Assembly: GCA_963777605.1 (NCBI GenBank) | Contig: CAVZRV010000011.1 | Span: forward strand, 160,001 to 224,000 | Source of the DNA: an uncultured Acidobacteriota bacterium | GTDB lineage: Bacteria; Acidobacteriota; UBA6911; RPQK01; JAPXNP01 | Length of the DNA: 64,000 bases | Reading direction: 5' to 3' | Shown here: positions 31,431 through 49,149 of the stretch, piece by piece | How the letters are laid out: every line of letters starts with the position of its first letter | Numbering within the stretch: position 1 is the stretch's first letter | The notes under the pieces: model-generated | Databases searched by the model: none | The model's input: only the letters and a program-made list of their open reading frames with translations | What the model was told of the DNA's origin: nothing | Made by a program: the position numbers and the translations under genes

Positions 31431-32786
31431 TCAGGCTTTCTCGGTTCCCGGAACCGGAATGACTGCCTTCATATCAAGTGGTCCCAGTTCATAAGTCTGG
31501 GGGCCGAGTTGCAGACTCGAAGCCATCATCTCGTCCCACGTGGTCTGCTTGCCGGTGTAGGCGGAGATGCGGCCCATGATCGCCGTCAGCGTCGAAACGG
31601 CGGTATTCTTGGCCTCATTCAGAGGCTTCCCGGTCCGAATCGCCGTCACGAGGTCGATGTGCTCCTGCACGTAAGGCGAGTTCACGCCACCTTCTTCCGC
31701 GCTCTCCGCTCCCGCGCCAGCCGGCGGCTGCCAGGTCCAGACGACCGACCCGTCCGGTCCATAGATGGTGTCCTTACAGTTGGTCGAGCCCTTCGATCCG
31801 ACAAGGTACTCAGACACGTTGTTCACGCAGCCGTCGATCTGACGGCACATGCTCATCGTGTGCATCCCATTTTCCAGCTCGAAGTCAATTGCGAAGAAGT
31901 CATACTGATCGCCCGTTACGCGTCGCTGTCTCCCGCCCATGCCGACTGCCGAAACCGGGTGAGAGTTGGTGAACCAGTTGATGACGTCAATGTTGTGGAC
32001 GTGCTGTTCTACGATGTGGTCTCCGGAAAGCCAGCACCAGTTGACCCAGTCGCGAATCGCCCACTCCATGTCGGACCAGCCCTTTTCGTGCTCCTTGTAC
32101 CAGAGCTGTCCCTGGTTCCAGTAGCATCGGGCCGCGACCAGTTCGCCGATTGCTCCATCCATGATCCGGTTGTAGGTTTCGATATAGGAGGTCTCGTGGC
32201 GCCGCTGCGTTCCAGTCGCAACTTTCAGGCCGGCTGCTTCCGCCTTTTCACCGGAGTCCATGATTGAGCGAGCACCCACCGGGTCCACGCAGACCGGCTT
32301 TTCCATGAAGACGTTCTTTTTGGCCTCCACCGCAGCCTTGAACATGGCCGGGCGGAAATGGGGTGGGGTAGCCAGGATGACATAGTTGACGTCGGCTGCG
32401 AGAGCTTTCTCGAAAGCATCGAAACCGATAAAACACTGATCATCCGCGACCTCGACACCCTTCTGCTCCTTCAACTGCTTGCGGCAGTTCTCGAGCCGAT
32501 CGGTGAAGACATCGGCCAGCGCCACGATCGAAAGCCCCGGTCCGGCGTCCATGAAGTTCATCCCGGCGCCGGTTCCGCGACCGCCACATCCGATAAGGGC
32601 CGCTCGGATCGGTTCCCCGTCGGGAGCGCTGTTGGGCCCAACTTCTCGCTTCGGGCCAAGTGAAATCGCCTTTTCCTCGGGTGCACTCGAGGAACACGCT
32701 GCCAGAACGGCACCTGCAACGGCAGCCGTTCCGATGAAGCTCCTTCGATTCAGACCAGATTCCTGCTCCTTCTCACGATCACTCAT
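31431..32786 (-). CDS. Gfo/Idh/MocA oxidoreductase, Tat-exported lipoprotein
   Basis: NRRSFI twin-arginine signal with LAAC lipobox; GCGGRG Rossmann motif, ATPPHFR, MEKP, GTQRR, EQHVHNID. Confidence 0.92.
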   Translation of the reverse strand: MSDREKEQESGLNRRSFIGTAAVAGAVLAACSSSAPEEKAISLGPKREVGPNSAPDGEPIRAALIGCGGRGTGAGMNFMDAGPGLSIVALADVFTDRLENCRKQLKEQKGVEVADDQCFIGFDAFEKALAADVNYVILATPPHFRPAMFKAAVEAKKNVFMEKPVCVDPVGARSIMDSGEKAEAAGLKVATGTQRRHETSYIETYNRIMDGAIGELVAARCYWNQGQLWYKEHEKGWSDMEWAIRDWVNWCWLSGDHIVEQHVHNIDVINWFTNSHPVSAVGMGGRQRRVTGDQYDFFAIDFELENGMHTMSMCRQIDGCVNNVSEYLVGSKGSTNCKDTIYGPDGSVVWTWQPPAGAGAESAEEGGVNSPYVQEHIDLVTAIRTGKPLNEAKNTAVSTLTAIMGRISAYTGKQTTWDEMMASSLQLGPQTYELGPLDMKAVIPVPGTEKA

Positions 32787-32868
32787 ATTCCCTATTCTCC
32801 TTTCCCCCATTAATAATCGCGCGATCAACCCCCTGCCGCAAGCCCGATCGCCTTTTTAAGGCGAAAAC

Positions 32869-34401
32869 TCATTCCGGCGGCCCTTCGCGCACGATTCGGA
32901 ACCCGACATCGGTACAGTCCGAAAACCACCAAACGCTCTTGGGAGTCTGTGGGTCAGTCTTCATCCAGGCACGATGCCTTGTCATGTCACGTGCCCCCGA
33001 CCGCAGATCGAGTGGCTCGCTCTTAAATGACCCGCCTCGAACCACATGCTCGGCCGCTGACTCGGGTCCTCTTGGATCCTTGACAACTTGCCCCTCCGGC
33101 AGCTTCGCGAGGAATTCTGGGTCATACCAGGTCTGGCAGAACTCCCGAACGTTCCCGTACACGTTGTACAGTCCCCATGGGTTCGGCTTCTTGCTTTGGG
33201 CAGGCTGGGTCTTGTTCTTGCTGTTGGCACGATAGACGGCATACTCGCCCAGGACCTCTTCGTTGACAACCGCACCGCCCATAATCCGGCTCAGGAACCG
33301 ATCGTACCAGGAGGGCGCGGGCTCGTCAGACTCGAAGAAGTAAGCCGCGGTGGTTCCGGCGCGCGCAGCATATTCCCACTCAGCTTCGGTGGGCAGCCGG
33401 TAGGTTCGTCCGGTCCTGGCCGAAAGCCACTCGCAGTACTTGGTTGCCGCGTAGTGAGTCATCGTGATGGCCGGGCGCGAGCCTTTTCCCCACCCCTGGT
33501 CGGGAGAACCGTAAGGCGGCGTCGGCCCGGTAATGGCATCGGACTTCAATCCCTGTTCGTTCTTGCCCCGCGTGACCGTCTCCGAGTAGTAGGCGTCAAA
33601 TTCCCGCCAGGACACTTCGAACTTGCCCATCCAGAACCCGCCCAACTCCACGGACCGCTGCGGCCCTTCGTCGGGCTGGTGCCCCGGTTCGGAATCCGGC
33701 GTCCCCATGTTGAAGGTTCCGGCTGGAATCGCGACCATTTCAAACTTCACGTTGGTATTGGGGATTTCTTCGGTGTAGCTGACAAACGCACCGGGCTCGA
33801 TTTCAGAAATCAGCGGCTCGGTCGGGCCGACCTCTTCTTCCGTCACCTCTTCGGTGGGGAGATACTGCTCTTCGGCGCCTTCGTGGAAGTGCCCCGTCTT
33901 CAGGTGGCAGTTGATACACCGCAGTTCGTCACGATTCTTCCGGTAGTGAATGTGGGCATCGACGCCCTTGTTGTTCAGGTTGGGCGGGAAGAGTTCCTGG
34001 TGACAGTGTGTGCAGGATTCTTCGAAAGTATAGTGGGCCGCCTCCTCAATGGTCGATTTGAAATCCCAGTCGATTTTGCTCAGGTCCTTGAAGTAGTACC
34101 CATAGATATCACGCGCCCCCGCCTTTCCTTTCTCGACGATGTAGTCGATTCCTTCCGGGGGCAGGTGGCAGTCGACGCAACCAACAACCACGCCGCTCTC
34201 GTTCTTGTAGTGGGCTCCCTGCTTCCAGGTATCCGTTGCAAATGGGTGGACGTGGCAACTTTCACAATACTCATTCGTAGAGGTCGCCTTCATTCCGGCG
34301 TTGCCGAGGTAGATCAAACCGCTGGCCAGAATGACCCCCATCACAAGGCCAAGAAACAGCTTGCTTTTGAAAACGGAGAGCTTGAACAGACGCATTCTCA
34401 T
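32869..34401 (-). CDS. membrane-anchored tetraheme NapC/NirT-type cytochrome c fused to an FGE-sulfatase-fold domain
   Basis: N-terminal TM helix; CESCH, CVDCH, CTHCH, CINCH; then GTFNMG, DEGP, EVSW, RLPTEAEWEYAARAG, PNPWGLYNVYGNVRE, RGGS, VGFR. Confidence 0.9.
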   Translation of the reverse strand: MRMRLFKLSVFKSKLFLGLVMGVILASGLIYLGNAGMKATSTNEYCESCHVHPFATDTWKQGAHYKNESGVVVGCVDCHLPPEGIDYIVEKGKAGARDIYGYYFKDLSKIDWDFKSTIEEAAHYTFEESCTHCHQELFPPNLNNKGVDAHIHYRKNRDELRCINCHLKTGHFHEGAEEQYLPTEEVTEEEVGPTEPLISEIEPGAFVSYTEEIPNTNVKFEMVAIPAGTFNMGTPDSEPGHQPDEGPQRSVELGGFWMGKFEVSWREFDAYYSETVTRGKNEQGLKSDAITGPTPPYGSPDQGWGKGSRPAITMTHYAATKYCEWLSARTGRTYRLPTEAEWEYAARAGTTAAYFFESDEPAPSWYDRFLSRIMGGAVVNEEVLGEYAVYRANSKNKTQPAQSKKPNPWGLYNVYGNVREFCQTWYDPEFLAKLPEGQVVKDPRGPESAAEHVVRGGSFKSEPLDLRSGARDMTRHRAWMKTDPQTPKSVWWFSDCTDVGFRIVREGPPE

Positions 34402-34496: not shown

Positions 34497-35528
34497 TCAA
34501 GAAGGAAAGCCGCCCGACTCGATCAAGGCTGCCTTTCCATCAGTTGAGGTCCGGGAGATTCGGGCTTCCACCCCTGCCATCCGCTCGACCAGTCTCAACC
34601 CGCTTTCCGCAGGAAGAACACTGAGGGCAGTTGCCAGCGCATCCGCTGTCGCCCCGTCAGGGGCGATGACCGTTACCGTACCGGCATGCCTGACGCCGAT
34701 TCCCGTTCGCGGATCGACAATATGGGAATAACGCTCCCCCCCGACTTCGACGAACTGGTAGTAGTCGCCGGAAGTGGCCACCGCACAATTCGACAGAAGA
34801 ATCGTGGACCTGCTTTTCGCCTCGTCCTGAATCTCCACTCGCCAGCCAGGCTTACCCGGAGGAGGTTCCCCCAGCCGAAGATCCCCGCCCACGTCGATCA
34901 GGGCCCGCGTGATGCCGTGTTCATTCAACACCTGGAGGGCTTTGTCGGCGGCCCAGCCCTTGCCGATGCCGCCAAAATCGAGGCGCATCCCCGGAGCCGC
35001 GAGACGGACGGCCTGTGTTCGAGGGTTGAGAAGAACCTTGTCGTATCCGACCTTCGCAAGGGCCTCCTGAAGTGCACCGGCATCGGGCAGGCGGCCTGAA
35101 CGCCGGGCCTCACGCCAGAGTTCTACAACCGGCTTGACGGTGATATCGAATGCGCCACCGGTCAATCGAGCCAGCCGGAGACTGTCGTCAATGATCCGGT
35201 AGAGTTCTTCGCTGACCACCTTTGGGCGCACGGTCGCGATCGGTTCGACTTTTTCGAGTTCACTCTCTTCACGGTAGTCGCTGATCACCTGCTCGAGTTG
35301 ATCGACCCGCTCAAAAACCGCCCAGGACGATTCCCGAGCCACTTTCTCGTCCGGTGCGAATAGGACAATCCGCAACTCGGTGCCCATGCAGCGGCCGTGA
35401 TACTCGAATCGATGGAGCGGGCTCTTTCCGGATGCTGCGGCAAGACCGCAAAAGAGCAGCCAGAAAACGGCCGGGCCGTACCTCGTGCCAAGGCCGGTTC
35501 CTCGAGGAGATCGCATATACGAGGCCAT
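34497..35528 (-). CDS. apbE: FAD:protein FMN transferase ApbE
   Basis: MGT, TGGAFDITV, LDFGGIGKG, GGD, ATSGDY, YSHIVDPRTG, ADALATA; hydrophobic N-terminus. Confidence 0.95.
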   Translation of the reverse strand: MASYMRSPRGTGLGTRYGPAVFWLLFCGLAAASGKSPLHRFEYHGRCMGTELRIVLFAPDEKVARESSWAVFERVDQLEQVISDYREESELEKVEPIATVRPKVVSEELYRIIDDSLRLARLTGGAFDITVKPVVELWREARRSGRLPDAGALQEALAKVGYDKVLLNPRTQAVRLAAPGMRLDFGGIGKGWAADKALQVLNEHGITRALIDVGGDLRLGEPPPGKPGWRVEIQDEAKSRSTILLSNCAVATSGDYYQFVEVGGERYSHIVDPRTGIGVRHAGTVTVIAPDGATADALATALSVLPAESGLRLVERMAGVEARISRTSTDGKAALIESGGFPS

Positions 35529-36182
35529 TCACTCCCCTCCCAGCGAAAAGGAGACATACTTGATGGAGCGGCCGGCTTGGAGGTGCCGCTCCTCGAACGT
35601 TGTCCGGACTCCCAGCAATTCCTCTTCCGGTTCCTTGCTGTAGAGGTCGTCGGAAATCTCGTGGATCGTTCCTCCGACCTGGCCTACCGACTCCTGCATG
35701 TATTCGAACAGAAAACGATCGTCCGTCTTGACGTGAAGCCTGCCTCCTGGTCGTAGCAGGCTCCGGTATGTGCGGAGAAACTCGGGGGAGAGGAGACGGT
35801 GCTTAGCCTGTCTCCGCTTGGGCCGGGGATCAGGATAGGGCAACCAGATGGAATCGAGTTGCCCCTCGTCAAAGTAGAGCTTCAGGTCGTGAATGTCAGC
35901 CCGCAGGAAAGCCGCGTTGGTCAACCCTTCGCGCAAGGCCCTGGTTGCCGCAATCCAGAGCCGATCTCCCCTTCGGTCAATCCCCACCACGTTGAACGTG
36001 CGGTTGAGCCGGGCCAAGGCGAGCGTGTACTCTCCCTTTCCGCTTCCCAGTTCCAGAATCAGGGGCCGGTCGTTCTTGAAGTGCTTCTCGACCCACTCGC
36101 CACCGGGACCCGCGTCGTCCCGGTCGAAACTGTTCGGAAGTGTCGGGAGAGCTTCGAAGCGGAGCCTTTTCTTTCTCGCCAT
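35529..36182 (-). CDS. trmB: tRNA (guanine-N7)-methyltransferase
   Basis: LELGSGKGEY, YPDPRPK, KTD, TTFEER. Confidence 0.92.
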   Translation of the reverse strand: MARKKRLRFEALPTLPNSFDRDDAGPGGEWVEKHFKNDRPLILELGSGKGEYTLALARLNRTFNVVGIDRRGDRLWIAATRALREGLTNAAFLRADIHDLKLYFDEGQLDSIWLPYPDPRPKRRQAKHRLLSPEFLRTYRSLLRPGGRLHVKTDDRFLFEYMQESVGQVGGTIHEISDDLYSKEPEEELLGVRTTFEERHLQAGRSIKYVSFSLGGE

Positions 36183-36194
36183 CAAGCCGCCCGT

Positions 36195-39100
36195 TCAGGC
36201 TTCGGATGAAACCGCCCCTTCAACCAGTCGCTTGCTCCTTCGAACCGCCCCCATGAACATGACATATAAAGAGGGTACGACGAAAAGGGTCAACACGGTG
36301 GCAAAGCCGAGTCCAAAGATCACCGCAATCGCCATGCTGGCCCACCACTGGCTGGATTCACTCTTGGTCGCCCACTCCATCAGGTGAAAGTCATAGCTGA
36401 TCCCGCTCGCCATCGGCACCAGTCCCAGCAGTGTCGTGCCGGCTGAAAGAAGGACCGGTCGGAGCCGGACGGTGCCGGCCTGCACGGCAGCTTCAACCAG
36501 ACCCCGCCCCTGTTCCTCGAGCTGGCGTGCGTAATAAAGGAGCACGATCGCGTTGTTTACGACGACACCGGCCAGACTGATCACTCCGACCCCGGTCATG
36601 ATGATCGAGAAAGGCATGGCAAAGATCAGGAGTCCGATGAGCACGCCGATCAGGGACAGGACGACGGTCGTCATGATGATCAGCGGAATTACCAGGCTGT
36701 TGAACTGGGCGACGAGGATCAGCGTGATCCCAAGCACAGCGATCAGAAAGGCCCGGAACAAAAAGCTGGCGGCTTTGTCCTGCTCTTCCTTCTCTCCCGC
36801 ATAACGGATCTCGTATCCTGCAGGCAGTTCCAGCCCGGCAAGAATCTTTTGGACATCGACCAGCACCTCGTTGCTCAGTCGGCCCTCGGCATCTCCGGTC
36901 AGGGTTACCACCCGCCGCTGGTTAAGGTGCCGGACCGTCCCCATGCCACCGGTGTAGACGAACTCCCCAAAGGAACTGAGGGGCACGGCACGGCCCAGGC
37001 TGTTCGGAATTTGGAGCTGGAGCAGGTCATCCACGTCGAGCCGCTGCTCGACCGGAAGCCGGATGGTGATGTCGTACTCGTCCCGAAACTGCCGGTAGGT
37101 CCCCACCTTGTTTCCGAAGATCGCAGTCTTCAGGTAGTTCCCGACCACAGCCGTGTTCACACCCAACAGCATGGCCCGCTGTCGGTCAACGTTGAATGCC
37201 AACTCGGGACGGGACGCCTCATAATCGCTCTTCAGGTTGACCAGACCCGGCACGTTCTCGATTGCCCGCTCAGCTCGTTCACTGATTGTCGCCAGCGTCC
37301 GGAAGTCTTTCCCTATCAGTCGAACGGTTACTGCTGCGCCGGTCGGCGGACCCTGCTCTTCTGCCTTGACGTCGATCTCCACGCCGGGAAGATTGGAGAG
37401 ACGGTCCCGCAACTCGGCGATGATCTCAGACGACGGCCGTTTCCGGGTTTCGAAATCCTTGAAGATCAGTGTGATCTGCGCGGAGTTCGGTCCGGCGCTG
37501 CTGGGACCCAGACTTCCTCCGCCTCCTGAGAGCCCCACATTACTGACAAAGTGCTGGAGATTGTCCCGGTACGGAGCCAGTCGGGCTTCGACCTCCCGGG
37601 TAATCCGGTCGGTCTCTTCGATATTGGTTCCCTGGGGCAACCGAATATCGATGTTGGCCCGAACCGGGTCGAATTCGGGGAACAGAACCACGCCATGGTC
37701 CATCTTCCCGTAGAGGATAACCAGTGAGATCAGCGCAGTGACGGCGAGGATGAGGGTAACGAATCGATACTCGATTGCGATCCGGAGCAACCAGCGATAT
37801 CCCTTCAGAAGAAGCGGAAGTTCATCGGATTCCTTGGGAACACCCCCCGACAGGACCGAACAGACCGAGGGATTGATGATGAGAGCAACAAAGAGGGACG
37901 AGGTCAGCGTGACGATCAGTGTGATGGGCAAATACTTCATGAAGTCGCCCATGATGTCCGGCCAGAAGATCAGCGGAGCGAAAGCGACCAGGGTCGTCGC
38001 CGTCGAGGTGATCACCGGCCAGGCGACTTCCCCGGTTCCCAATTTTGCCGCCTCGATCCGACTATAACCGAGCTGGATGTGGCGGTAGATGTTCTCGACG
38101 ATTACGATCGCGTTGTCTACCAGCATCCCGAGCGCCATGATGAGGCTGAAAAGGACGATCATGTTGAGGGTGTAACCCATCAACTGGAGCACCGTGAAGG
38201 TGATCAGCATGCTCAGGGGAATCGCGAGCGCCACGATCGTGCTCGTGCGAAACCCCATGAAGAGTACCAGCACAACGACGACCAGGACCAGACCTGAAAG
38301 GATGTTGTTCTCCAGGTCTTTCACCATGGAGTTGATTTCTTTCGACTGGTCGAGGGTTATCTCGAACTTCACTCCCTGCGGGACTGCGCTGTGCGCCTCT
38401 TCGAGGATCCGGTCGATAGCAGCCTTGATCGGAACGATGTCGGCCCCTACCCGTTTCTGAACGCTCAAGGTCAAGCTCGGTGCCCCGTCCAGGCGGGAAT
38501 AGGTGGAACGGTCCTTGAAGGTGTCCCGGACCACTCCGATGTCGGAGAGGTAGATCGGTTTTCCGTTGACCACGGCCAGGATCAGGTGTTCGACGTCGTC
38601 CGGATTTTCGAACTCGCCCGGGACCCGGACGTTGAACTTGGTACCCGGAGTCTCCAGGCTGCCCGCCGAGACATTGACATTCTCGCTTGGCACCAGGGCA
38701 AGCAGTTGCGCCAGCGTAAGCCCGTAGGCAGCAAACCGGTCATGATCGACCTCAAGGCGAATTTCACGTTCCAGGCCGCCAAGGACGTCACAGTTCAAGA
38801 CCCCCGGGATCTCCTCGATGACATCCTCGAGTTCGTCGGCGATATCCTTGAGTCTAACCGGTGAAACGCCTCCATGGATGTTGATCAGGAAAATCGGGAA
38901 ATCAGCTACACTGATTTCCTTGATGGTGGGCTCTTCGGCGTCCTCGGGAATTTCACCCCGCACCTGGTCTACCTTGTCCCGAACGTACTGGAGCGCTTCT
39001 TCGATCCGGATATCGGGATAGAACTCGACGATAACATTGGAGATCCCTTCCGCACTGACCGAAGTGATCTCCTTAACCCCTTTAAGCCCGGCCAACTCCT

Positions 39101-39305
39101 TCTCGATCTTGATCGAGACAGCGGTCTCCACGTCTTCAGGGGACACCCCTTCGTATGGGGTAGTGATCACGACAAAGGGAATCGGAACGTCCGGAGCACC
39201 CTCCCGGGGAAGCGTGGCGTAGCTGTACACTCCGGTCACCACGATAAGCAGGATCAGGACCCATACTACAACCCGGTTGTCGATGGCAGCATCGGAGAGA
39301 ATCAC
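36195..39305 (-). CDS. RND efflux permease (AcrB/AcrD/AcrF family)
   Basis: 1036 aa with 12-TM layout; GMLVDNAIVIVEN, AFAPL, GVVVNNAIV, RLRPVLL, GLVPM. Confidence 0.93.
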   Translation of the reverse strand: MILSDAAIDNRVVVWVLILLIVVTGVYSYATLPREGAPDVPIPFVVITTPYEGVSPEDVETAVSIKIEKELAGLKGVKEITSVSAEGISNVIVEFYPDIRIEEALQYVRDKVDQVRGEIPEDAEEPTIKEISVADFPIFLINIHGGVSPVRLKDIADELEDVIEEIPGVLNCDVLGGLEREIRLEVDHDRFAAYGLTLAQLLALVPSENVNVSAGSLETPGTKFNVRVPGEFENPDDVEHLILAVVNGKPIYLSDIGVVRDTFKDRSTYSRLDGAPSLTLSVQKRVGADIVPIKAAIDRILEEAHSAVPQGVKFEITLDQSKEINSMVKDLENNILSGLVLVVVVLVLFMGFRTSTIVALAIPLSMLITFTVLQLMGYTLNMIVLFSLIMALGMLVDNAIVIVENIYRHIQLGYSRIEAAKLGTGEVAWPVITSTATTLVAFAPLIFWPDIMGDFMKYLPITLIVTLTSSLFVALIINPSVCSVLSGGVPKESDELPLLLKGYRWLLRIAIEYRFVTLILAVTALISLVILYGKMDHGVVLFPEFDPVRANIDIRLPQGTNIEETDRITREVEARLAPYRDNLQHFVSNVGLSGGGGSLGPSSAGPNSAQITLIFKDFETRKRPSSEIIAELRDRLSNLPGVEIDVKAEEQGPPTGAAVTVRLIGKDFRTLATISERAERAIENVPGLVNLKSDYEASRPELAFNVDRQRAMLLGVNTAVVGNYLKTAIFGNKVGTYRQFRDEYDITIRLPVEQRLDVDDLLQLQIPNSLGRAVPLSSFGEFVYTGGMGTVRHLNQRRVVTLTGDAEGRLSNEVLVDVQKILAGLELPAGYEIRYAGEKEEQDKAASFLFRAFLIAVLGITLILVAQFNSLVIPLIIMTTVVLSLIGVLIGLLIFAMPFSIIMTGVGVISLAGVVVNNAIVLLYYARQLEEQGRGLVEAAVQAGTVRLRPVLLSAGTTLLGLVPMASGISYDFHLMEWATKSESSQWWASMAIAVIFGLGFATVLTLFVVPSLYVMFMGAVRRSKRLVEGAVSSEA

Positions 39306-39307
39306 GG

Positions 39308-40384
39308 TTACCCTGCGTTCTGTATGTTTACTTGCTGCCCGGGGCCGACCAAGCGCTGCCCGGTGACAATCAGGAGATCACTGGCATTCAGACCTTGGAG
39401 AACCTGGACTTCAGTCCCTCGGATCATTCCCAGGGTCACTTCCCGCCGCTGGGCCTTCCCCTCCTCCACGACGTAAACCACCCGACCGTTCTCGAGCGGT
39501 ATCACTGCGGAAAGCGGAATCATGACCACATCACTCAACGTGCGACGGGAGATCCGGGAACGAACGATCATCCCGGCGTGGAGAACTCCGCTGGCATTGT
39601 CGAGAGTCAACTCAATCGGTGTGGTGCGTGTCACCGGGTCGGCGATCTCGCTAATGTACGTAACCTTGCCGGCGAAGTTACGTCCACCCAGAGAGTCAAC
39701 CTCAAGCCGGACCGTCATCCGGGGCCGGATGAATCGGATGTCTTTCTCCGGAATCTGAATTTCCACCTTGACCCGATCAACCACCACGATCTGAGCAACC
39801 GTGTCCCCCGATGAGACGAACTCTCCCCGGTCCTTGACCAACTCGTTCACTACCCCGCTGACGGGCGCGCGCACAGTGGTCCGGTCGAGGTTCGTTTCAG
39901 CCACCCTGAGATTGGCGCGGCTCACAATTCTGCGGGCGTCGAGTTCATCGACCTCGCTCTTTCGAACCACACCTTTCTCAAGCAGTTCCGACGATCGCTC
40001 CGCCATGCGCTCGTCGAAGTCGGCCTGAGCTTCAGCCTGATCGAAGAGAGCCCTGAGGAGGGTTCCGTCCAGCTTGAGAATCAGGTCACCCTCCGTTACC
40101 GCCTGTCCCTCCTCAACGAGTACTTCCTCGATCTGCCCCTGTTGCTCTACGGGTACGTCGACGATTTGCCAGGGTTCCACCACGCCGGGCAGGACCAGAA
40201 GATCGGACATTTCACTGACCGGCCGCACCTCCATGACTTCGACGTCGGCAACAACGACTTCCTCCGGAGGCAGATCCTTTTCCGGGGTCGGCATTCGGGC
40301 AATCAGGAACACGACTACCCCGGCCACCGACACGACGAACAGAGACACGAATAGCTTGAAAAAGCGGGATCGGTTCGCAGCCAT
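39308..40384 (-). CDS. RND periplasmic adaptor (MFP)
   Basis: N-terminal anchor, VEEGQAVTEGD lipoyl half, VRAPVSG, IPLSAV, GLNASD. Confidence 0.92.
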   Translation of the reverse strand: MAANRSRFFKLFVSLFVVSVAGVVVFLIARMPTPEKDLPPEEVVVADVEVMEVRPVSEMSDLLVLPGVVEPWQIVDVPVEQQGQIEEVLVEEGQAVTEGDLILKLDGTLLRALFDQAEAQADFDERMAERSSELLEKGVVRKSEVDELDARRIVSRANLRVAETNLDRTTVRAPVSGVVNELVKDRGEFVSSGDTVAQIVVVDRVKVEIQIPEKDIRFIRPRMTVRLEVDSLGGRNFAGKVTYISEIADPVTRTTPIELTLDNASGVLHAGMIVRSRISRRTLSDVVMIPLSAVIPLENGRVVYVVEEGKAQRREVTLGMIRGTEVQVLQGLNASDLLIVTGQRLVGPGQQVNIQNAG

Positions 40385-40444: not shown

Positions 40445-40778
40445 AACAAGCCTGAATAGGGGGTAATGAATGCAAGATCCAGTTCTTTTGCAGCTCCCGG
40501 CTCAGGCTCAACACGCCTGCCGGCACGGATCACGACCAGCTAATTGAGAACCCGGGCCATCTAGCAGGGGGAATGGGTTAAATCACTCAGGCTCCCCAAA
40601 CCAAACCCGGCTCCTTTCGGTGATTCGCTTCAGGAACCGCCAAAGTCCTTTTCTTCCGAAAACGGTGATGCTACCATGACTTCACCCCATTGTGCCGGAG
40701 TTCGCCATGGTACCTGTGAACCGTAGCGTCTTCTCTCTTCTCCGGCGAAGTCTGTCTTACTCAAGAAGGAGGTTACCG

Positions 40779-41819
40779 ATGGCCTTCGTGCGTAAGTTTT
40801 CCTGGGCGTTATTTATCCTCCCCGTACTGGTCGGATGCGGTCCCGGCACAGACCAGCAGATGTCCGCTGCCCTCGACCAGGGCGATGAGACGATGGTCGC
40901 CACGCTTCTCGAAAATGGAGCGAATCCCAACCTGAAACTGGCCAGTGGATCGACAATCCTGATGTTCGCCTCCGAAAAGGGCAGGGCCTCCGCGGTTAAT
41001 AGCCTGCTTGCCAAAGGAGCGAATGTCGATTCCAAAGATCTCTTGGGGGAGACGGCACTCCTCCTGGCGGCCGGCAACGGGCACACCGATATCGTCAAGA
41101 CCCTCATCGAGGCCGGGGGGACCGTTGACATCCAGGATGTCGATGGTAAGACACCCTTGATTCGGGCCGCCGAAAACGGCCATACCGAAACAGTGAAGGC
41201 CCTCCTTGACGCCGGTGCCAAGCTGGAGCAGTCGGACAATTCGTCCCAGACCGCCATGATCCACGCCGCGGTGGCTGGACACCTCCCGGTTGTCCAACTC
41301 CTCGTTGACGCCGGTTCGGATGTCAATTCAAAGAACTTCGAAGACTGCACCGCCTTGATTCTCGCCAGCGCCAACGGGAAGGCGGACGTCGCCCGGCTTC
41401 TTCTGGAGCGCGGTGCCAGCGTGAACGCGGTTGGAAAGGACGGCTGCACCGCACTGATGAGGTCAGCCGAAAAGGGGTTTGCGGATGTCGTTCGGGTCCT
41501 TCTCGAAAACAAGGCCGCCGTCAACACCAAAGACAGCATGGATCGTACCCCCCTGATGCGCGCTTCTGAACAGGGCCACAGCGATGTCGTACAACTCCTC
41601 ATCGACAACAAAGCCGAGGTAAATGCCGTTGATAAATCGATGCAGACTGCACTTCTGTGGGCGGCACTGAGGGGGAACACCGAGGCTGTCCAACTCCTCA
41701 TCAAGCACCGTGGCGACGTCAATGCGGAAGACGCCAACGGGTGGACGCCGCTGAGGTGGGCGGAGAACAATGGTCATACCGAAACCGTAGCCCTGCTGAA
41801 GGAATCGGGTGCGCACTAG
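40779..41819 (+). CDS. ankyrin-repeat lipoprotein (about 10 repeats)
   Basis: SD AAGGAGG, lipobox LVGC, 33-aa repeats GxT(P/A)LxxAxxxGHxxxVxxLLxxG. Confidence 0.92.
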   Translation: MAFVRKFSWALFILPVLVGCGPGTDQQMSAALDQGDETMVATLLENGANPNLKLASGSTILMFASEKGRASAVNSLLAKGANVDSKDLLGETALLLAAGNGHTDIVKTLIEAGGTVDIQDVDGKTPLIRAAENGHTETVKALLDAGAKLEQSDNSSQTAMIHAAVAGHLPVVQLLVDAGSDVNSKNFEDCTALILASANGKADVARLLLERGASVNAVGKDGCTALMRSAEKGFADVVRVLLENKAAVNTKDSMDRTPLMRASEQGHSDVVQLLIDNKAEVNAVDKSMQTALLWAALRGNTEAVQLLIKHRGDVNAEDANGWTPLRWAENNGHTETVALLKESGAH

Positions 41820-41904: not shown

Positions 41905-43315
41905 ATGAACCAATCGATGCGCGTGCGCGAAGTCCAATTCTTCGAGAGGCCCATCCGGCTTCGACTCCCATTCCGATTCGGAATCATCACGCTGACTGAG
42001 GAACCTCAGATCTTCGTCAGAACACTGGTTGAATTCGGAGACGGATCCCGGGTCTGGGGGCAAGCCGCAGAGGCACTGGCCCCCAAGTGGTTCGACAAAG
42101 ATCCCAGCCGTTCCAACGAGCAGAACTTCACTGATCTGCGCAGTTCCCTGACTACGGCGGCATCACATGTACCTCCTTTCGGGGACCCGGAGAACCGCCT
42201 ATTCTCTCTTCGCTGACAACTACGAGAATCAGTTGAGCGGAACCACCAAGCAGGGTCTCAATCACCTCGTTGGCAGTTTCGGGCAGGCGCTTCTGGATCG
42301 CTGCGTAATCGACGCCGTGTGCCGTTTTCATGAGGCTTCATTCGCAGAAGCCGTCCGTTCCAATCTCCTGGGCGTTTATTCCCTTGCCGTGACGCCGGAA
42401 CTGGCGAACTTTGACCTGAACGGCTTTCTCGCATCACTCAAGCCCCTGGACAGCATCTACGCACGCCACACCGTAGGCCTCGTCGATCCGATTACGGCAT
42501 TGGATCAGGAGCACCGAGTCAATGACGGCCTCCCGGAGACCCTGGAAGAAGTGATCGGGTTTTACGGGCATTCCTATTTCAAGATCAAGGTGCAGGGTGA
42601 TCTCGAACTCGACCTCGCTCGACTGGGGGCTATTACAGCGGTTCTCGACGGACTTCCTCAGCCTTACTTCGTTACCCTGGACGGCAACGAGCAATTCGAG
42701 GACGTGGATGAGATTCTCGAACTCTGGCGTCGCCTGCGGGAAGATCCCCGATTCCAGCGCTTCGTGAGTTCAATCCTCCTGATCGAACAGCCCATCAAGA
42801 GAAGCAGGGCAATGCAGGACGTCTCGCGCTTGAGCAGCCAGTGCCCGATAATCATCGACGAATCTGATTCCGACCTGGATGCGTTTGCGACCGCGCGCGT
42901 CTTCGGGTACTCGGGCGTATCGAGCAAACAGTGCAAGGGCGTGTACAGATCGATTCTGAACGCTGCCCGCTGCCGCGCGTGGTTGAGTTCGGAACCGTCC
43001 AGGCGATGGGTGATGACCGGAGAGGACCTGACCATCCAGGGAGGAGTCGCGCTGCAACAGGACCTCGCCCTGGCGGCGACGCTGGGATTGACGCACATCG
43101 AACGCAACGGGCATCACTACGTTCGGGGTATGAACGGGGCCTCCAGAAACGAGCAGAAAGCATTTCTCAAAGCCCATCCGGACCTCTATGTTTCGGAGGA
43201 GGACTGGGTCCGAGTGAAAATCGAAAAGGGCAGAATGCAACTCGGCTCTCTCAACTGCCACGGACTCGGGACCCGTGAAGAGCCAGACTGGGGTGCCATG
43301 GTCCGGCTCCGTTGA
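41905..43315 (+). CDS. enolase/mandelate-racemase superfamily protein (+1 frame break near 42160-42167)
   Basis: N-terminal RLPFRFG and APKWFDK; barrel FKIKV, LDGNEQ, IEQP, IDES, SSKQCKG, GEDL, ERNGHHY. Confidence 0.8.
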
Positions 43316-43454
43316 TCTGACGGGCGCCGGCTGCGGGCATCGAGATCCCTCGGCCGTCTTTATTCATGCGACGGCTATTGATTCCTCACTGGACAGGTGC
43401 TACAAATGCGCTAACTACTTACGTTCCAGCGAGAGCGAACACCGGGGAGGGTCA

Positions 43455-46400
43455 ATGAAACGGCCAACGTCCATCGCAGGTTTGTGGAGTCTGCTAATCA
43501 CCATCCTTTTTCTTTCCCCGATTGTATATCCGTCGTCGAAACTGATCTTTCCTCGCTTCTCTTTCGACAACGGAACCTACACAGGCCTGGCAATTGCGAA
43601 CCTGGGGACTCAATCGGCCCGGGTGACCCTGACCGCTTACGGAACCGACGGGTCCGTGATGTCGGGGACGGCATTCCAGAATCCGGTTGAAATCGACATC
43701 CCGGCCAACCAGCAACTTGCCAAGCTGATTTCAGAGATCTTTCAAGGCACACTGCCGGCAAGTTCCGTGGGATGGGTCGAACTGACCAGCCCGGCCGACT
43801 CGATCACCGGCTTCTTCCTTTTTCTGAACGGCCAACTCACTCAACTCGACGGGGCCGATCTCCCGGTTTCAGCGGGTGAAATCGTTTTCAACCTGATCAA
43901 GGTCGGTGACGGCTACCATACCGAACTGAACTTCATTAACCCGAGCCCCACGGAAATCAAAGTCGGTCTGTCTCTGGTCCAGCCGGAACAGGGAACGACC
44001 GCCAAGGAAATTACCCTTTCCGCACGAGCGGTCAGCCGAATCGATGCCGCTTCATTGTTCGGACTTACGACAGTCGACACCGGCACCTATCTGAAGGCTG
44101 CCGCCACATCCGGAAGCGTAGCGGGTTTCGAGTTCGTCCGCTCCGATTCCGGAGACCTGCTGGGTCTCAACGCAAAAGACGTCGAGGAAACGCTCGATTC
44201 GATCATTTTTCCTCAACTGGTCGCCTCCGGCCCCTGGAAGAGTGAACTGGGACTGATCAACTACACGGATTCACCGACACTCGTGACAATCACTGCGCAC
44301 CGGTCGGACGGGAGCCTGTTCGGATCGGACGTGCTCCAATCGAATCCCGTAACACGTGGACTGGAAGCCGGCGAAAGCGTCGTCCTGGACCTTCAGGAGA
44401 TCTTCGGCTTCTCGGGAACTTCGGCCATTGACGGGTGGCTGCAGGTCGAGGCAACCGATTCGGCCGTCAACGGTTATGTCAGCTACGGGATCCCCAGCGT
44501 CGGCTCGCTGGCCGCCATCGCCAGTGTCAAGGAAGCCTCCAAAGCAGCCGTTTTCTCCCACATGGCGACCGCGTCAGGCTTCTTCACCGGGGTTGCTCTT
44601 CTCAACCCGACGACGCTGCGGGCGAACACGAGAATCGTCGCGATGACGCCCGAGGGAGAGATCCTGGGAAGTTACGACACTGTCCTTCAACCCGGAGAGA
44701 GAGTGAGCAAACTCATCAACGAGTTGATCGGGGAAACCGCCAACAGGAGCAACGGGTTTGTCTGGATTCACAGTGACCTGCCTCTCTACAGCAGCTCATT
44801 GTTCGGTGCTGCCAAGGTACTGGCCAATGTTCCGGCCCAGGAGGCCCCGGGTGAATACAAGCCGGACACCAACCTGCCCACTCTCCTCGTGAAGCCGCCC
44901 ATCGCAGTCGTCCAGCCCGGCAGCACCCATACATTTTCGGTGCAGGGGGCACCGGGGACCGTAGCCTGGTCCGTGAATGGGTTGCCGGGAGGAGGAAGCG
45001 ACGTAGGGACGATCGATGGGTCCGGAAGTTATACCGCACCCTCGGACCGGCCGCAGCCGTCCTACATAACAGTAACTGCAGAATCGACCAATTTGCGGGG
45101 AGGTGCAACCGTCGACCTTCTCAAGGCGGACGAGCTCCTTTCCGGGCTGGGTGTCCTGCAATCCATCGTCTACCTTCACTCTCTGAAACAACTGTACGAG
45201 GTGGAGTTGAATTCGCTCTCCGCCCTCGATCGAGGCGCCGCTCCGGCGTCCGAGACCCAGGCGGACAGCCAGAGCGAACTGTTCCAGGTTGCTCCCCCTT
45301 CGGTCAAGACGTCTGTTCGGACCTTCTCCGACAACATAGTCAAGATGCTCTCTTACACGGCATCGGACGGGAAAGAGTATGTCCTGATGCTCGGGAAGGA
45401 CTCCGGCGACCTGGTCCGGCTCGAACCAGAAACCCGTCAAACCCGCATTGTCTACACGGGCCTCAATAGCCCGACTTCGATGGCACTCGACGAAACGACC
45501 GGCAACGTTCTCGTTGCCGAAGCCGACCGGATCACCGAGGTCGCCAAGTCGTTTCTCGAATCAGGCTTGATTTCCGCCTCCGCCCGGACCGGCCCGGGAC
45601 AGGGTGGAGTCGACAACTCGACAGTCCTGCCATCGGAAGGAGTGACGGGAATCGAGGTGGATCTTTGTACCGGCGAGATCTACTACTCGGTCGCGGACGA
45701 AGGGACCATTTACGCCTATAACCGGTTCACCGGGGAGACCACCGTTCTGGCTTCGGGGTTGTCCGACCCGGGGCAACTGCTGGTGGTCTACCGGGATGAT
45801 GTTCCCTGCCCCGACAGCAGCCAGTTGTTGGTGGCGGAACCGGGTGCCGACAGAATCTCACTGGTGGCACCCTCGCTCAATGCCCTGATTTCCTGGGTCT
45901 CTGCCCCGGGCGTCCGTGACCTCGTTTATCTCCCCCCGGACAACCCGTTCAACCTTAAGACGAGCATCGCGTATGGTCTCTACTTCGACCTGTCAGGTTC
46001 GATTGGAATCGTCGATGTCGGTGATCAGTACGGGGATCCTCCGCCGGTCGAAGAACAGCCCGCCTGTCCCGGTGAAGTCACATTTGACGATCCCAACCTG
46101 GAAGCAGGAGTGAGACAAGCCCTCGGCCTGCAGGCCGATGAGCCGATCACTTGCGAACTGGCGGCTTCTATGACGCAACTTCACGTTCCATCAAGGGAAA
46201 TTTCCCGACTCGATGGGATCCGCTTCCTCGAGAATCTCGAGGTCCTGGACATCAGCCGGAACCTGATTCGAAATCTCGCTCCAATCGGTGCGCTGGCAAA
46301 GCTCCAGACGTTGAATGCATCTTACAACCTGGTTGAATCTCCCGGTCTGTCAGCCAACCTGGTCGAACTTTCCGATCTGGACCTCTCGCACAACCTGATC

Positions 46401-49149
46401 ACTGATCTCGATACTCTCGTAAACCTCGAGGTGGGCACTGCCGGAGTGGGGTTCGGTCGTTCCGCCCGCTTCCAGGGAATCCTGCCCTCCCTCATTATTC
46501 TGGACCTCTCCTTCAACCAGATCTTCGATCTCGGGCCACTCTCCACCCTCCTCTCCCTGCAGGATCTGGACCTTTCGGCGAATTTCACCATCACCAACAT
46601 CAACGCCCTCTCGGGCCTCGTCAACCTGCACACACTCCGTCTATTTCAGAACTCCATTTCCGAGATCGATGCGGTTTCCCACCTGACTGCGCTGGTCCTT
46701 CTCGACCTCTCCTCGAACCAGGTCACCGAACTGCATCCGCTTCTGGAGAACCTGGGGCTCGGAGAGGGAGACGTATTGCTGCTTCAGTCCAACCCGGTCA
46801 GCCTCAGTTCCTGCGACGTCATAGCTGAACTCGAGCAGCGTGGAGTCACCATCGACATCAAGGGAATCTGTGCCGTTGATCTCGACTTGAGCTTCACGGC
46901 GCAGCCGAGTGTAGCGCGTCAGGAAGACCTGCTTCTGTACACGGCCCGCATCTGGAACAAGGGGACGGAAGCGGCTCAGGGAGTTACGCTGGACATCGAT
47001 TACCCAACGGCTACCACCTTTCGTTCGGTCCGTGCTGACCGGGGAACCTGCCAGCGGGAACTCAGCCATATCACCTGTACCTGGGATTCGCTGGGTCCGG
47101 GTAGCATCATCTTCACCAACCTCCGTGTCGAAGTTCAGTCCCGAAGCGGCATTCTGGAGTCGAAAGCCTATACCGAAGCAGTCCAGGCCGAGTTGAACAT
47201 GGACAATAACGAAGCGCTGGTGACGACGCCAATTGCCGAAGCCGATCTCCAGGTTACCAAGACCATCTCTGAGGACCCGGTCACCGCAGGAAGTTACGTT
47301 ACTTATACTGTGGAGGTTCAAAACCTGGGACCTGAGCGTGCAACGGACGTCACCCTCACCGACAAGCTGCCGTCCGATTTCGGCTATGAGACCTTCTCGA
47401 CCACTTCGGGAAATTGCTCCTACGAAGAGGGAGTGGGATCCATCGTCTGTGCGATTCCGGACATTGCGGCGAATTCGACCGTCACTCTGAGTATCGAGGG
47501 AACCGTCTATGCCACTTCGGGGACCATCACCAACAGCGCATCGGTGAACTTGCGGGAGTTCGATCCCGATCCTCTCAACAATCGGGCGCACTCTACCGTC
47601 CAGGTGACGGCACCTGATCTCGTCGTCACCAAGACCGATTCCGTCGATCCGGTCACCACCGGCGGGGACCTGACCTACACCGTAATCGTGACCAACGCCG
47701 GTAATGTTGCCGCAACCAACCTGGTGATCTCCGATAATCTTCCCGCCGGGGTCAATTTTGTTTCCGCATCACTGCCTGGCGGGACGTGCACGCCATTGAA
47801 CCTCCAACTCGAGTGCACGCCTTCCCTCTCTCGCTCCGGGAGCCAACGCCGTACTGACGATCAACACGCTGGTCGTCGCAACCGCGGGGACTCTGACCAA
47901 CACGGTGACGGCTAACGAGGATGAGATCGATGGCAACAGTTCCGACAATACGGCCACCCAGAACACAACCGTCGCGCAGACCGACCTGGCCGTGACCAAG
48001 ACCGCGAGCCTGGAACCGGCTATCACCGGCGCCGACCTCGATTACCAGATCCAGGTCACGAACAACGGACCTCACGCCGCAACGGGTGTGGTGCTGTCCG
48101 ACCAGTTGCCGGCCGGAGTCACCTACCAGGGCGCATCGATCGGCTCCTGCTCCGAGATCAGTGGATTCGTTCAATGCGCGATCGGCAGCCTGGCCTCGGG
48201 TCAGTCTGGATCAGTAACACTTACGGTCCGAGTCAACACTCTACAGCCAACCATCACGAACACCGCGTCGGTAACCGGAGACCAGTCTGATCCAGTCACC
48301 GGAAACAATGCGGCCTCAGTCAACTCGACTGTTACCCAGGTTGCAAATCTGGCGATATCGAAGACCGGGACGCTGAGTATCGTCAGGACGAGTGACGATC
48401 TCGATTTCAGCATCGCGATTACCAACAACGGGCCGAGTGATGCAACCGGCGTTGTCATGAGTGACACGCTCTCGTCCGACCTGATCTATGACGACGTGAA
48501 TTTTCCCGCGACGGTCTCCCCGGTCGGAACCGGAACGTGCGGGTATGATGGGCAACTGGGAGAGATTCAGTGTGCTTTCCCATCAATCCCGAGCGGAGCG
48601 ACTCGAACCGTGACGATTCCCGTCCACGTAAATCCCGAGCCTAGCGGAGCGCTGACGATCCCGAACACTGCGACCGTCGCAGGAAACGAGACCGATCCCG
48701 ATGCGTCTGACAATTCCTCCAGCTTTCCGCTGACAATGGCACAGGCGGATCTTGGAATCTCTTTCTCCAGTTTTCCGGATCCCGGCGTCCCAGTACCGGC
48801 GGATGTCGAATTCAATTATGTTCTCGACGTTCAGAACAATGGACCTCACGCTGCACAACTTCCAAGGTTCTACATCGGCCTCTCCCCGGTCGCGACGGGT
48901 TACTACACGATTGGGACTCCCGCCGTCGTGCCAGGCTTGATTCAGGGCTCATGCACACCGAACATATCGTGGGCCACGTGTGATCTGGATGAAATCCCGT
49001 CCGGGGCATCAGTACAGATCACAGTGCCTGTCACAGTTCATGTTGGCCCTGTCACCGTGGACGCATCCGCGAGCATCAATTCGCGGGAGTTTGACCTCAA
49101 TTCAGATAATGACTCCGACGCCGTTCAGACCTCAGTCACTATTAACTGA
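43455..49149 (+). CDS. ~1900-aa secreted multidomain surface protein (4 beta-sandwich repeats, Ig, beta-propeller, internalin-type LRR, 6 DUF11 repeats; +1 frame break at ~47820)
   Basis: SD GGGGAGG and signal peptide; LxxLDLSxNxI repeats; DLxVTK...YTxxVxNxGP repeats. DUF11 repeat 3 reads through perfectly (ECT-LPSLAPGANAVLTI) if one C is removed at 47820. Confidence 0.85.

Follow-up and report, generated by a model that had tools for sequence, protein, structure and literature searches.

The known substrates of the ApbE family of flavin adenine dinucleotide (FAD):protein flavin mononucleotide (FMN) transferases are the FMN_bind proteins (NqrC, RnfG, NosR, and PplA), NqrB/RnfD, DUF2271, DUF3570, ApbE-linked FMN_red, and Flavodoxin_4, and cytochromes of the NapC/NirT/CymA/NrfH/TorC type connect the quinone pool with periplasmic redox enzymes. 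Here we describe a locus at which these two themes appear to meet, in a 64,000-nucleotide stretch of DNA (hereafter the window, meaning this whole stretch) from an uncultured Acidobacteriota bacterium (GenBank assembly GCA_963777605.1, contig CAVZRV010000011.1, positions 160,001 to 224,000). The gene in question encodes a fusion of a NapC/NirT-type tetrahaem cytochrome c with a domain that shows a formylglycine-generating enzyme (FGE) fold; an apbE gene lies 95 bp upstream on the same strand, and a gene for a Gfo/Idh/MocA oxidoreductase with a twin-arginine translocation (Tat) signal lies 40 bp downstream. We propose, with a probability that we put at about 0.6, that ApbE has in the FGE-like domain a new substrate, one whose motif is non-canonical and which relays electrons from reduced nicotinamide adenine dinucleotide (phosphate) (NAD(P)H) via FMN and the haems to quinone, and that apbE, the cytochrome-FGE fusion, and the Tat-exported dehydrogenase together form a periplasmic dehydrogenase:quinone electron-transfer module. 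Results obtained by computation are the order of the genes and their domains, the conservation of the motif and how it is linked to apbE, the clade formed by the ApbEs, the lack of known substrates in five genomes, and the predicted interface described below.

The fusion protein has an N-terminal hydrophobic helix followed by four CxxCH motifs (CESCH, CVDCH, CTHCH, and CINCH), and thus both features of the NapC/NirT class, an N-terminal membrane helix and four CxxCH, are present. Because of this anchor and the c-type haem motifs, we place the protein in the periplasm. The AlphaFold2 (AF2) model, built with 139 aligned relatives, had a predicted local distance difference test score (pLDDT) of 88.5 and a predicted template modelling score (pTM) of 0.88. 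A Foldseek search with the model returned PvdO (5hha; E 1e-19) and the true FGEs 6xtp, 2q17, and 1y1h (E ~1e-17), which, together with the PF03781 match, identifies the FGE fold; a phmmer search likewise returned PvdO (5hha; E 8.5e-26), plus FGE chains. The earlier note on this DNA had pointed out that no Cys is found where the catalytic Cys pair of FGE is expected, and we find the same: the stretch after RGGSF, KSEPLDLRSGAR, contains zero Cys residues. We take the pair to be located after GGS[FW], in the stretch RGGSFKSEPLDLRSGAR, a segment that itself falls outside the HMMER alignments to FGE chains, which end at GGSF. The sole Cys after this segment, C496, is absent from the conserved columns. 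We propose that the Cys pair has been lost from this FGE fold, which here would act as a docking scaffold that carries a flavin. Two elements of the domain will concern us. First, the loop that carries the proposed acceptor, Thr294, is flexible in the free model, as the pLDDT falls below 50 at residues 280–289 and averages 69 over the block 291–300 that holds Thr294. Second, a C-terminal insert has D483, P484, Q485, P487, S489, and W491 invariant in 139 sequences.

The reverse-complement translation agrees with the earlier note in placing DAITGPT within the FGE-fold domain (Table 1), and the other facts given in that note are likewise borne out. Compared with the ApbE consensus D-x-x-[ST]-G-A-[ST], the window protein has the acceptor (Thr294), D288, and T291; its −2 residue is Gly, at a position that varies in the family (below), and the Ala at −1 is replaced by Pro293. 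The expression D..[ST]G[AP][ST] matches 88 times in the 59,890 stop-to-stop open reading frames (ORFs) of the genome, and a single occurrence of DAITGPT is therefore uninformative on its own. In a protein search with the fusion protein, 7,966 of 8,000 scored candidates were significant; the best 120 matches (49–100% identity) all have both Pfam domains, NapC/NirT and FGE-sulfatase, and in these [ST]-G-P-[ST]-P-P-Y-G-x-P-D-Q-G-W-G is nearly invariant. A species-representative scan, with one genome per GTDB species, gave 78 loci, which a profile alignment divided into 40 with the loop (L017–L054, L058, and L064) and 38 distant FGE domains without it. When the 120 best matches, the 40 loop-bearing loci, and eight sequences from the phylum of the window were combined into 168 subfamily sequences, the acceptor position was Ser/Thr in all 168 (152 T, 16 S), with P in 161 and A in seven at −1, G in 132, R in 25, and other residues in 11 at −2, S/T in 156 at −3, I/V/L/M in 152 at −4, D in 149 at −6, and Y/W/F in 168 at +3, giving the family motif D-A-[IV]-[ST]-x-P-[ST]-x-P-Y. 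The motif as first stated in the earlier note thus holds for its Pro and not for its Gly, which is specific to the branch fused to cytochromes; DAVTRPT or a similar sequence is found in most FGE-only members, and [ST]-R-P-[ST] in most of those linked to apbE. The seven Ala-bearing sequences include the canonical DGITGAT (L019) and DGISGAT (L025), as well as DAITGAT and DAVTGAT among the best 120 matches. Further, N-terminal extensions bearing CxxCH occur in 14 of the 40 loop-bearing members and in none of the 38 distant FGE domains, and one of these extensions (L043) joins a PSCyt1 cytochrome c domain to the FGE-like one.

The loop is linked to apbE. When the 78 loci were searched by phmmer seeded with the three ApbEs of the genome, apbE was found at 15 of the 40 loop-bearing loci, a lower bound given that many loci end at contig ends, and at none of the 38 distant-FGE loci; 14 of the 15 genes lie within 2.5 kb (seven of these at less than 80 bp) and one at 9 kb. 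The earlier note had proposed comparing apbE-linked with unlinked FGE homologues, and in this comparison the loop tracks with apbE. A second sample, in which the coordinates of fusion-protein matches were compared with those of PF02424 matches in 151 Acidobacteriota genomes, placed apbE less than 350 bp from at least ten of 19 subfamily loci (genomes G000, G033, G100, G016, G049, G050, G002, G055, G136, and G118; five ApbE matches are unlisted) and near none of 28 weaker FGE matches. Loci of this sample were assigned to the subfamily when the match had E <= 1e-34 or extended as far as the C-terminal insert, and loops were read directly in eight of the 19 loci; G118 (E 5.9e-27, match ending at residue 421) was added after its apbE neighbour had been seen, its loop being confirmed afterwards, and the count is 9/18 without it and, likewise, 9/18 without the unpublished genome G049. 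We conclude that the conservation of the loop together with its linkage to apbE, and not the motif alone, exceeds chance.

These results bear on the view that the FGE-like domain is an unrelated enzyme with a chance motif, such as a SUMF1/EgtB/PvdO-like metal-dependent oxidase or binding module. Such a view would accommodate the 88 genomic matches of the expression, the closeness of the solved PvdO fold, and the name "SUMF1/EgtB/PvdO family nonheme iron enzyme" that relatives carry in the sources. We nevertheless hold it to be very improbable, as PvdO lacks the loop in the alignment, no Cys follows GGSF, and chance explains neither a Ser/Thr in 168 of 168 sequences, nor linkage at 15/40 against 0/38 loci, nor the ApbE clade described below.

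The neighbourhood of the loop-bearing gene extends beyond apbE. A Gfo gene was found within 250 bp at 23 of the 40 loop-bearing loci and at one of the 38 others, and Pfam analysis of 115 ORFs from 14 apbE-linked loci revealed a recurrent trio of FGE-like, Tat-Gfo/Idh/MocA, and ApbE genes, joined in L045, L048, and L050 by xylose-isomerase-like TIM barrels. Pairs of FGE-like and ApbE genes with no Gfo gene detectable nearby occur in L030, L024, L038, and L102, of which L024 and L038 are cut short. In the first of these, from a Flavobacteriaceae genome (L030:9809-12505), a YceI-like gene lies between the FGE-like gene and apbE, followed by a short-chain dehydrogenase/reductase gene, and no Gfo was found within 5 kb. 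We also note that the genome of the window encodes an FGE-only paralogue (C27:532334-534670; L011:6346-8673) of 327 amino acids with a signal peptide and the loop DAVSGPTPVYG; its gene comes directly after one for a Tat-Gfo/Idh/MocA protein, a xylose-isomerase-like TIM barrel is encoded close by, and there is no apbE within 150 kb.

The ApbE protein of the window was aligned with the solved structures 7esa, 4xdt, 4ifu, and 1vrm. Its Tyr85 aligns with the Tyr of 4xdt, a position occupied by Asn in the FAD-hydrolysing wild-type Treponema pallidum Ftp (4ifu), and the active-site His269 is retained in SHIVDPRTG (HIVDPxTG motif). According to one study, the Tyr of the FAD-binding class contacts the isoalloxazine, and Y60A and Y60N variants hydrolyse FAD (PMC4767422). 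Judged by these residues, the window ApbE looks competent as an FMN transferase. We then compared 76 ApbE sequences, namely 60 from Acidobacteriota genomes, 13 from the species-representative loci (L022, a split gene, and L047, at 9 kb, were excluded), and three from the genome of the window, in a tree from a quick IQ-TREE search (LG+C20) with Shimodaira–Hasegawa-like approximate likelihood ratio test (SH-aLRT) support. The 60 were a non-random set, with eight chosen as FGE-linked and the rest being ApbEs of the same genomes and high-scoring ones. In this tree, 21 of the 22 FGE-linked ApbEs, including that of the window, form one clade (SH-aLRT 100) that spans Acidobacteriota, Planctomycetota, Verrucomicrobiota, Gemmatimonadota, and Bacteroidota, the sole exception being the long-branched Pedobacter sequence L036; the clade also includes L153, an ApbE whose gene shares its contig with an FGE-like gene, 18.5 kb away. 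Nine of the ten Rnf-linked ApbEs fall in a different clade. The FGE label requires three changes on the tree, compared with a mean of 19.2 when labels were shuffled (0 of 500 shuffles as low).

The distinctness of this clade from the Rnf-linked ApbEs could also mean that the enzyme has diverged and is not the flavinylase of this module, acting instead as an FAD pyrophosphatase, in flavin trafficking, or on a different residue or group; ApbE/Ftp proteins with FAD pyrophosphatase activity do exist (PMC4767422). This seems to us quite improbable, since the window enzyme has Tyr in place of the Asn of the pyrophosphatase type and keeps the His of HIxDPxTG, and since tight, repeated linkage to one protein family is the pattern of known substrates.

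The earlier note had noticed no other FMN-binding ApbE target in the window, and this holds in that Pfam matched none of the known ApbE-substrate families, FMN_bind included, in the 41 window ORFs scanned; FMN_bind, RnfD/NqrB, DUF2271, and DUF3570 were also unmatched at E <= 1e-5 among the 115 ORFs of the 14 apbE-linked loci. We extended the search to five whole genomes (G136, G002, G055, G118, and G016), which are 97, 96, 95, 88, and 100% complete and contain 2, 4, 2, 2, and 5 ApbE matches, respectively. In none of the five was FMN_bind (PF04205) found, a search whose control matched in four of 14 genomes; RnfD/NqrB (PF03116) exceeded the cut-off in none of the five, the single match, in G055, staying below it at 24.2 bits, and DUF2271 was found in none of them. 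Because the known families are absent there, the ApbEs of these genomes need a substrate outside them, and their ApbE neighbours are FGE-like and Gfo genes.

How far may an ApbE site depart from the consensus? Natural RnfD sites depart from it at −2 and share the Pro at +1 with the loop, as in RnfD of the same genome (DTVSAATPL) and Escherichia coli RsxD (DGISQATPL); that FMN sits on the Thr of these sites is our assumption, by homology to characterised RnfD and NqrB. For one tested ApbE substrate, a review (PMC12052999) reports that a T-to-A substitution of the acceptor abolishes flavinylation, that D to A has a minor effect, and that G to A and A to V leave ~50% flavinylation. We found no published link between ApbE or flavinylation and the FGE fold, Gfo/Idh/MocA, or DoxX, though the large tables of PMC8238504 and the supplements of a 2024 preprint could list them; the FGE-like family is unmentioned in PMC8238504, the 2024 preprint, and a 2025 review. 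The earlier note had read DAITGPT as an Ala-to-Pro ApbE site on an FGE scaffold that screens for [ST]GA[ST] would miss; conservation, linkage, clade, and the absence of known substrates all favour this, the covalent FMN itself being the inferred part. Overall, the proposed flavin site agrees with every computational test run and is partly supported.

Three further observations from the same genome concern flavinylation-type motifs. An Rnf operon (C8:250010-251740; L016:7010-8740) encodes the RnfD mentioned above, with Ala in place of Gly at −2, and RnfG with DSISGAT, and has no adjoining apbE; it may be served by the ApbE encoded on C7, which groups in the tree with ApbEs of "other" contexts. 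A protein of 612 amino acids (C31:234039-235874; L015:4039-5874) has an N-terminal DoxX membrane domain, a canonical VDTLSGAT, and a C-terminal domain without a Pfam match, and may be another flavinylated quinone-linked enzyme. Finally, a different FGE-sulfatase-domain protein (C31:99577-101043; L014:7577-9043) has a canonical DAISGAT between RGGSW and GFR, which we take to be the loop where true FGEs have the Cys pair.

The gene downstream of the fusion encodes the predicted partner of the FGE-like domain. The earlier note had proposed the flavin site and had overlooked this dehydrogenase, which would give the flavin a purpose. Its Tat motif and GCGGRGTGA loop are conserved in 24 partner Gfo sequences, and Tat-exported Gfo-type enzymes bind NAD(P) tightly (PMC8121099). 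A flavin is the usual converter at such a junction, because a two-electron nicotinamide could not be expected to feed one-electron haems directly. We folded Gfo residues 46–465 with FGE-like residues 196–510, FMN and NAD included, and obtained a score of 0.87, the best of three controls scoring 0.00; the mark used is reached by 116 of 157 solved complexes and two of 215 mismatched pairs, a calibration that holds roughly here (own alignments, ligands included). The runs shared at least 63% of contacts, with a partner pLDDT of at least 81. On the FGE side, the predicted interface comprises residues 294–303 and 305 (Thr294 loop), 478, 481–482, and 484–487 (DPQTP insert), and 269–283; on the Gfo side, it comprises residues 82–91 (dinucleotide loop GGRGTGAGMN), 237–245, 332–338, 373–374, and 384–386. 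The prediction thus places the loop and the insert, the two elements specific to the subfamily, on the dehydrogenase, next to where its cofactor binds. The suggestion in the earlier note that the aromatic insert stacks the flavin gained no support from any result; the DPQTPKS insert is instead predicted to dock on the glycine-rich loop of the dehydrogenase. The model supports binding between the FGE-like domain and Gfo, and the predicted interface would fit an FMN placed between nicotinamide and haems, and would also fit a loop that is a mere docking surface. Foldseek on the FGE side returned no solved complex of the FGE-like:Gfo kind, and we know of none.

On this basis, we envisage the following mechanism. 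The dehydrogenase would be exported folded, with bound NAD(P), and would dock on the FGE-like domain of the membrane-anchored cytochrome, to which a periplasmic ApbE of the dedicated clade would have attached FMN, by a phosphoester bond to Thr294 of D-A-I-T-G-P-T. The tethered FMN, held at the interface beside the nicotinamide cofactor, would take two electrons and pass them singly to the four haems, which would reduce menaquinone. Regarding the dehydrogenase family, we note that the genome has ~66 matches to Gfo/Idh/MocA, of which 42 show a Tat-like RRxF motif, and only two genes of the FGE-like subfamily; close paralogues of the window dehydrogenase (C30:278636, C11:25279, C11:460253, C31:522894, and C31:411109) might share the single membrane FGE-cytochrome. 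We also considered Gfo as the flavinylated protein in FGE-type modules and rejected it, having found no motif-like conserved Ser/Thr in it.

A second type of module has Gfo and ApbE genes and lacks the FGE-like gene. All three ApbE genes of the genome lie next to, or one gene from, a Gfo gene, and at one of these loci (C27:378145-380965; L013:6142-8962) the order is Tat-Gfo/Idh/MocA-DoxX-ApbE. Among 52 non-FGE-linked Acidobacteriota ApbE loci, 19 have Gfo within 1.3 kb, usually with a gap of 0.4–0.6 kb, and ten have RnfG and RnfD genes nearby. Loci of this second type are L105, L108, L112, L115, L117–L119, L147–L152, and L154; DoxX in the gap was identified by Pfam only at the genome's own locus and by visible likeness in L105. 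Their Gfo proteins have an insertion of ~40 residues after the position of window-Gfo residue ~362, which FGE-partnered Gfo proteins lack. In seven of 15 aligned rows (L115, L117, L119, L150, L151, L152, and L154), the insertion reads PGF[RK]G[ILV]DAVTTATE[EQ]YF, containing D-x-x-T-x-A-T; six (C27 of the same genome, L105, L108, L112, L147, and L148) read RDAAG.., with no clear acceptor seen, and two are truncated. The ApbEs of these modules form a separate clade (support 100). The Gfo residues predicted to touch the FGE-like domain (373–374 and 384–386) lie ~10–20 residues past the insertion point, which suggests one and the same place for the FMN, whether it is provided in cis or in trans. 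A broader reading, which we advance tentatively and give somewhat less than an even chance, is that Tat-exported, NAD(P)-loaded Gfo/Idh/MocA enzymes, hugely expanded in Acidobacteriota, Planctomycetota, Verrucomicrobiota, and Bacteroidota, are wired to respiration by a tethered FMN in either of two interchangeable ways, each with its own ApbE clade of altered specificity. In trans, the FMN would be carried by the loop D-A-[IV]-[ST]-x-P-[ST] of an FGE-fold adaptor, free or fused to NapC-type or monohaem cytochromes, with one FGE-cytochrome perhaps serving as a shared hub; in cis, the dehydrogenase would carry it on an insertion loop of its own (DAVTTAT), in modules to which, in this genome, a DoxX gene belongs.

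Several points weigh against flavinylation of the FGE-like domain. That Thr294 carries covalent FMN is inferred, as are the substrate and the direction in which electrons flow. The Foldseek search with the fusion-protein model returned no flavoprotein, and to our knowledge the FGE fold has no known flavin pocket. The Pro at −1, present in 96% of the sequences, was not found for any ApbE substrate in the literature examined, and, according to PMC12052999, A to V at this position already halves modification; further, most apbE-linked members have Arg rather than Gly at −2, leaving two of seven motif positions off consensus. No apbE was seen in the flanking DNA of 25 of the 40 loop-bearing loci, among them eight of the nine NapC/NirT-fusion loci (L017–L021, L023, L025, and L035), seven of which have flanks of 5–10 kb. 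The ApbE tree comes from a quick search only, and DUF3570, unmatched in the five genomes, was searched for without any positive-control match. Three runs of the complex scored 0.87, 0.00, and 0.88, and the model yields protein contacts and no FMN or NAD positions; the place of the loop in the predicted interface could alone account for its conservation. Lastly, the two other ApbE genes of the genome (C7 and C27) lie by Gfo without an FGE-like gene, and the linkage could thus be to the dehydrogenase.

The last points, in particular the predicted interface (loop residues 294–305 and insert residues 484–487), the ApbE genes linked to Gfo alone (C7, C27, and the 19/52 loci), and the Pro, without precedent in the literature examined, would suit an explanation in which loop and insert just bind the dehydrogenase and ApbE flavinylates Gfo at an unrecognised site or has its target elsewhere. 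We consider this unlikely. FGE-like and ApbE genes pair without a Gfo found nearby at the four loci named above, and the five tested genomes contain no match to the known substrates. In the partner Gfo proteins, the only invariant Ser/Thr residues resembling the motif are the Thr of ATPP and T86 of the glycine-rich loop, and the residue three past T86, where an acceptor hydroxyl would be needed, is Ala, Gly, or Ile in 24 of 24. Further, the loop shares D, [IV], [ST], the acceptor [ST], and the +1 Pro with the ApbE motif, an agreement not expected from docking by itself, and Gfo itself carries DAVTTAT where the FGE-like gene is absent. We thus continue to favour FMN on the FGE-like domain.

Table 1. 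Features of the redox locus and their coordinates in the window
Feature	Position	Strand	Evidence or remark
Fusion protein: membrane anchor, NapC/NirT tetrahaem cytochrome c, and Cys-less FGE-fold domain, 510 amino acids	32869..34401	(-)	
NapC/NirT domain, residues 15-172	33886..34359	(-)	Pfam PF03264, E 2e-27
CxxCH motifs of the NapC/NirT domain	34252-34266, 34165-34179, 34000-34014, 33904-33918	(-)	
FGE-sulfatase fold domain, Pfam span residues 221-476; fold runs on to the C-terminus	32974..33741	(-)	PF03781, E 5.5e-44
DAITGPT, proposed non-canonical flavinylation motif	33520..33540	(-)	Proposed FMN acceptor Thr294, codon 33520-33522
Whole conserved loop DAITGPTPPYGSPDQGWGKG, residues 288-307	33481..33540	(-)	
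Segment after GGSF, RGGSFKSEPLDLRSGAR, without Cys	32989..33039	(-)	
Subfamily-specific C-terminal insert TDPQTPKSVWWFSD	32917..32958	(-)	
Tat-signal (RRSFIG) Gfo/Idh/MocA oxidoreductase, 465 amino acids, predicted partner of the FGE-like domain	31431..32828	(-)	PF01408, PF22725
ApbE-family FAD:protein FMN transferase, 343 amino acids, N-terminal signal/anchor	34497..35528	(-)	PF02424, E 8.7e-78

Beyond the features in Table 1, a gene for a TrmB-like methyltransferase (PF02390), the last in the stretch 35529-40384 of the minus strand, ends exactly at the start of apbE and is preceded by a resistance-nodulation-division (RND) efflux pair of AcrB type (36195-39305) and HlyD type (39308-40384), all of which may be transcribed as one long unit together with the redox module. 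On the plus strand, the window encodes an ankyrin-repeat protein with six Ank_2 stretches (40692-41819) and, adjoining it, two very large surface-type proteins with DUF11 and leucine-rich repeats (43275-49149; 1,546 and 414 amino acids).

We judge it somewhat more probable than not that ApbE flavinylation here takes place on a new scaffold, at a new motif and by a transferase clade of its own. If true, it would add to ApbE flavinylation a substrate that is unrelated in fold and has a non-canonical motif, and would assign a function to the very many proteins that now bear the annotation "formylglycine-generating enzyme" or "SUMF1/EgtB/PvdO nonheme iron enzyme." It would also offer a testable answer to how periplasmic dehydrogenases with a non-exchangeable nicotinamide are re-oxidised, and methods for flavin tagging could be widened by the relaxed motif x-P-[ST] and the transferase clade that goes with it.

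Compared with known ApbE substrates, the FGE-like domain has in common its extracytosolic location, the adjoining apbE, a proposed extracytosolic role in electron transfer, and a loop whose −6 residue is D, whose −4 residue is hydrophobic, and which has S/T both at −3 and as the acceptor, with Pro at +1 as in RnfD. Unlike them, it has an FGE-like (C-type-lectin-like) fold and no known flavin-binding domain, Pro rather than Ala at −1 (161/168) and often Arg at −2, and an ApbE clade of its own. With FGE (SUMF1) and PvdO it shares the fold and the RLPTEAEWEYA and RGGS motifs; it differs from them in having no Cys after GGSF, in the extra loop DAITGPTPPYGSPDQGWG and the extra insert DPQTPKSxWW, in its fusion to a tetrahaem cytochrome, and in having apbE and a dehydrogenase, not sulfatases, as linked genes. 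The cytochrome part resembles NapC, NirT, CymA, NrfH, and TorC in its N-terminal anchor helix, four CxxCH, and PF03264 match. TorC, too, has an extra C-terminal domain, which faces its partner; here, in a difference from NapC-type cytochromes, the partner-facing C-terminal domain is FGE-like, and the proposed flow runs from the NAD(P)-dehydrogenase via flavin to quinone.

On the side of the dehydrogenase, one of the closest described enzymes is glucose-fructose oxidoreductase (GFOR), which recycles its cofactor with a second substrate. The window dehydrogenase and Tat-exported GFOR are both periplasmic Gfo/Idh/MocA proteins with a Tat signal and, presumably, tightly held NAD(P) (PMC8121099). 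We also compared periplasmic 3-ketoglycoside dehydrogenases, namely BT2158 and the cytochrome c-dependent LacABC and ThuAB; the latter two belong to other protein families than the window dehydrogenase. Bacteroides thetaiotaomicron BT2160, considered as a candidate cytochrome-FGE fusion, was rejected, as 10.1101/626366 gives it as a SusR-like regulator. The xylose-isomerase-like TIM-barrel genes in several related loci add to the likeness to sugar dehydrogenase systems. GFOR oxidises glucose to gluconolactone (PMC8121099); for the enzyme described here, we propose a dedicated flavin/haem acceptor instead.

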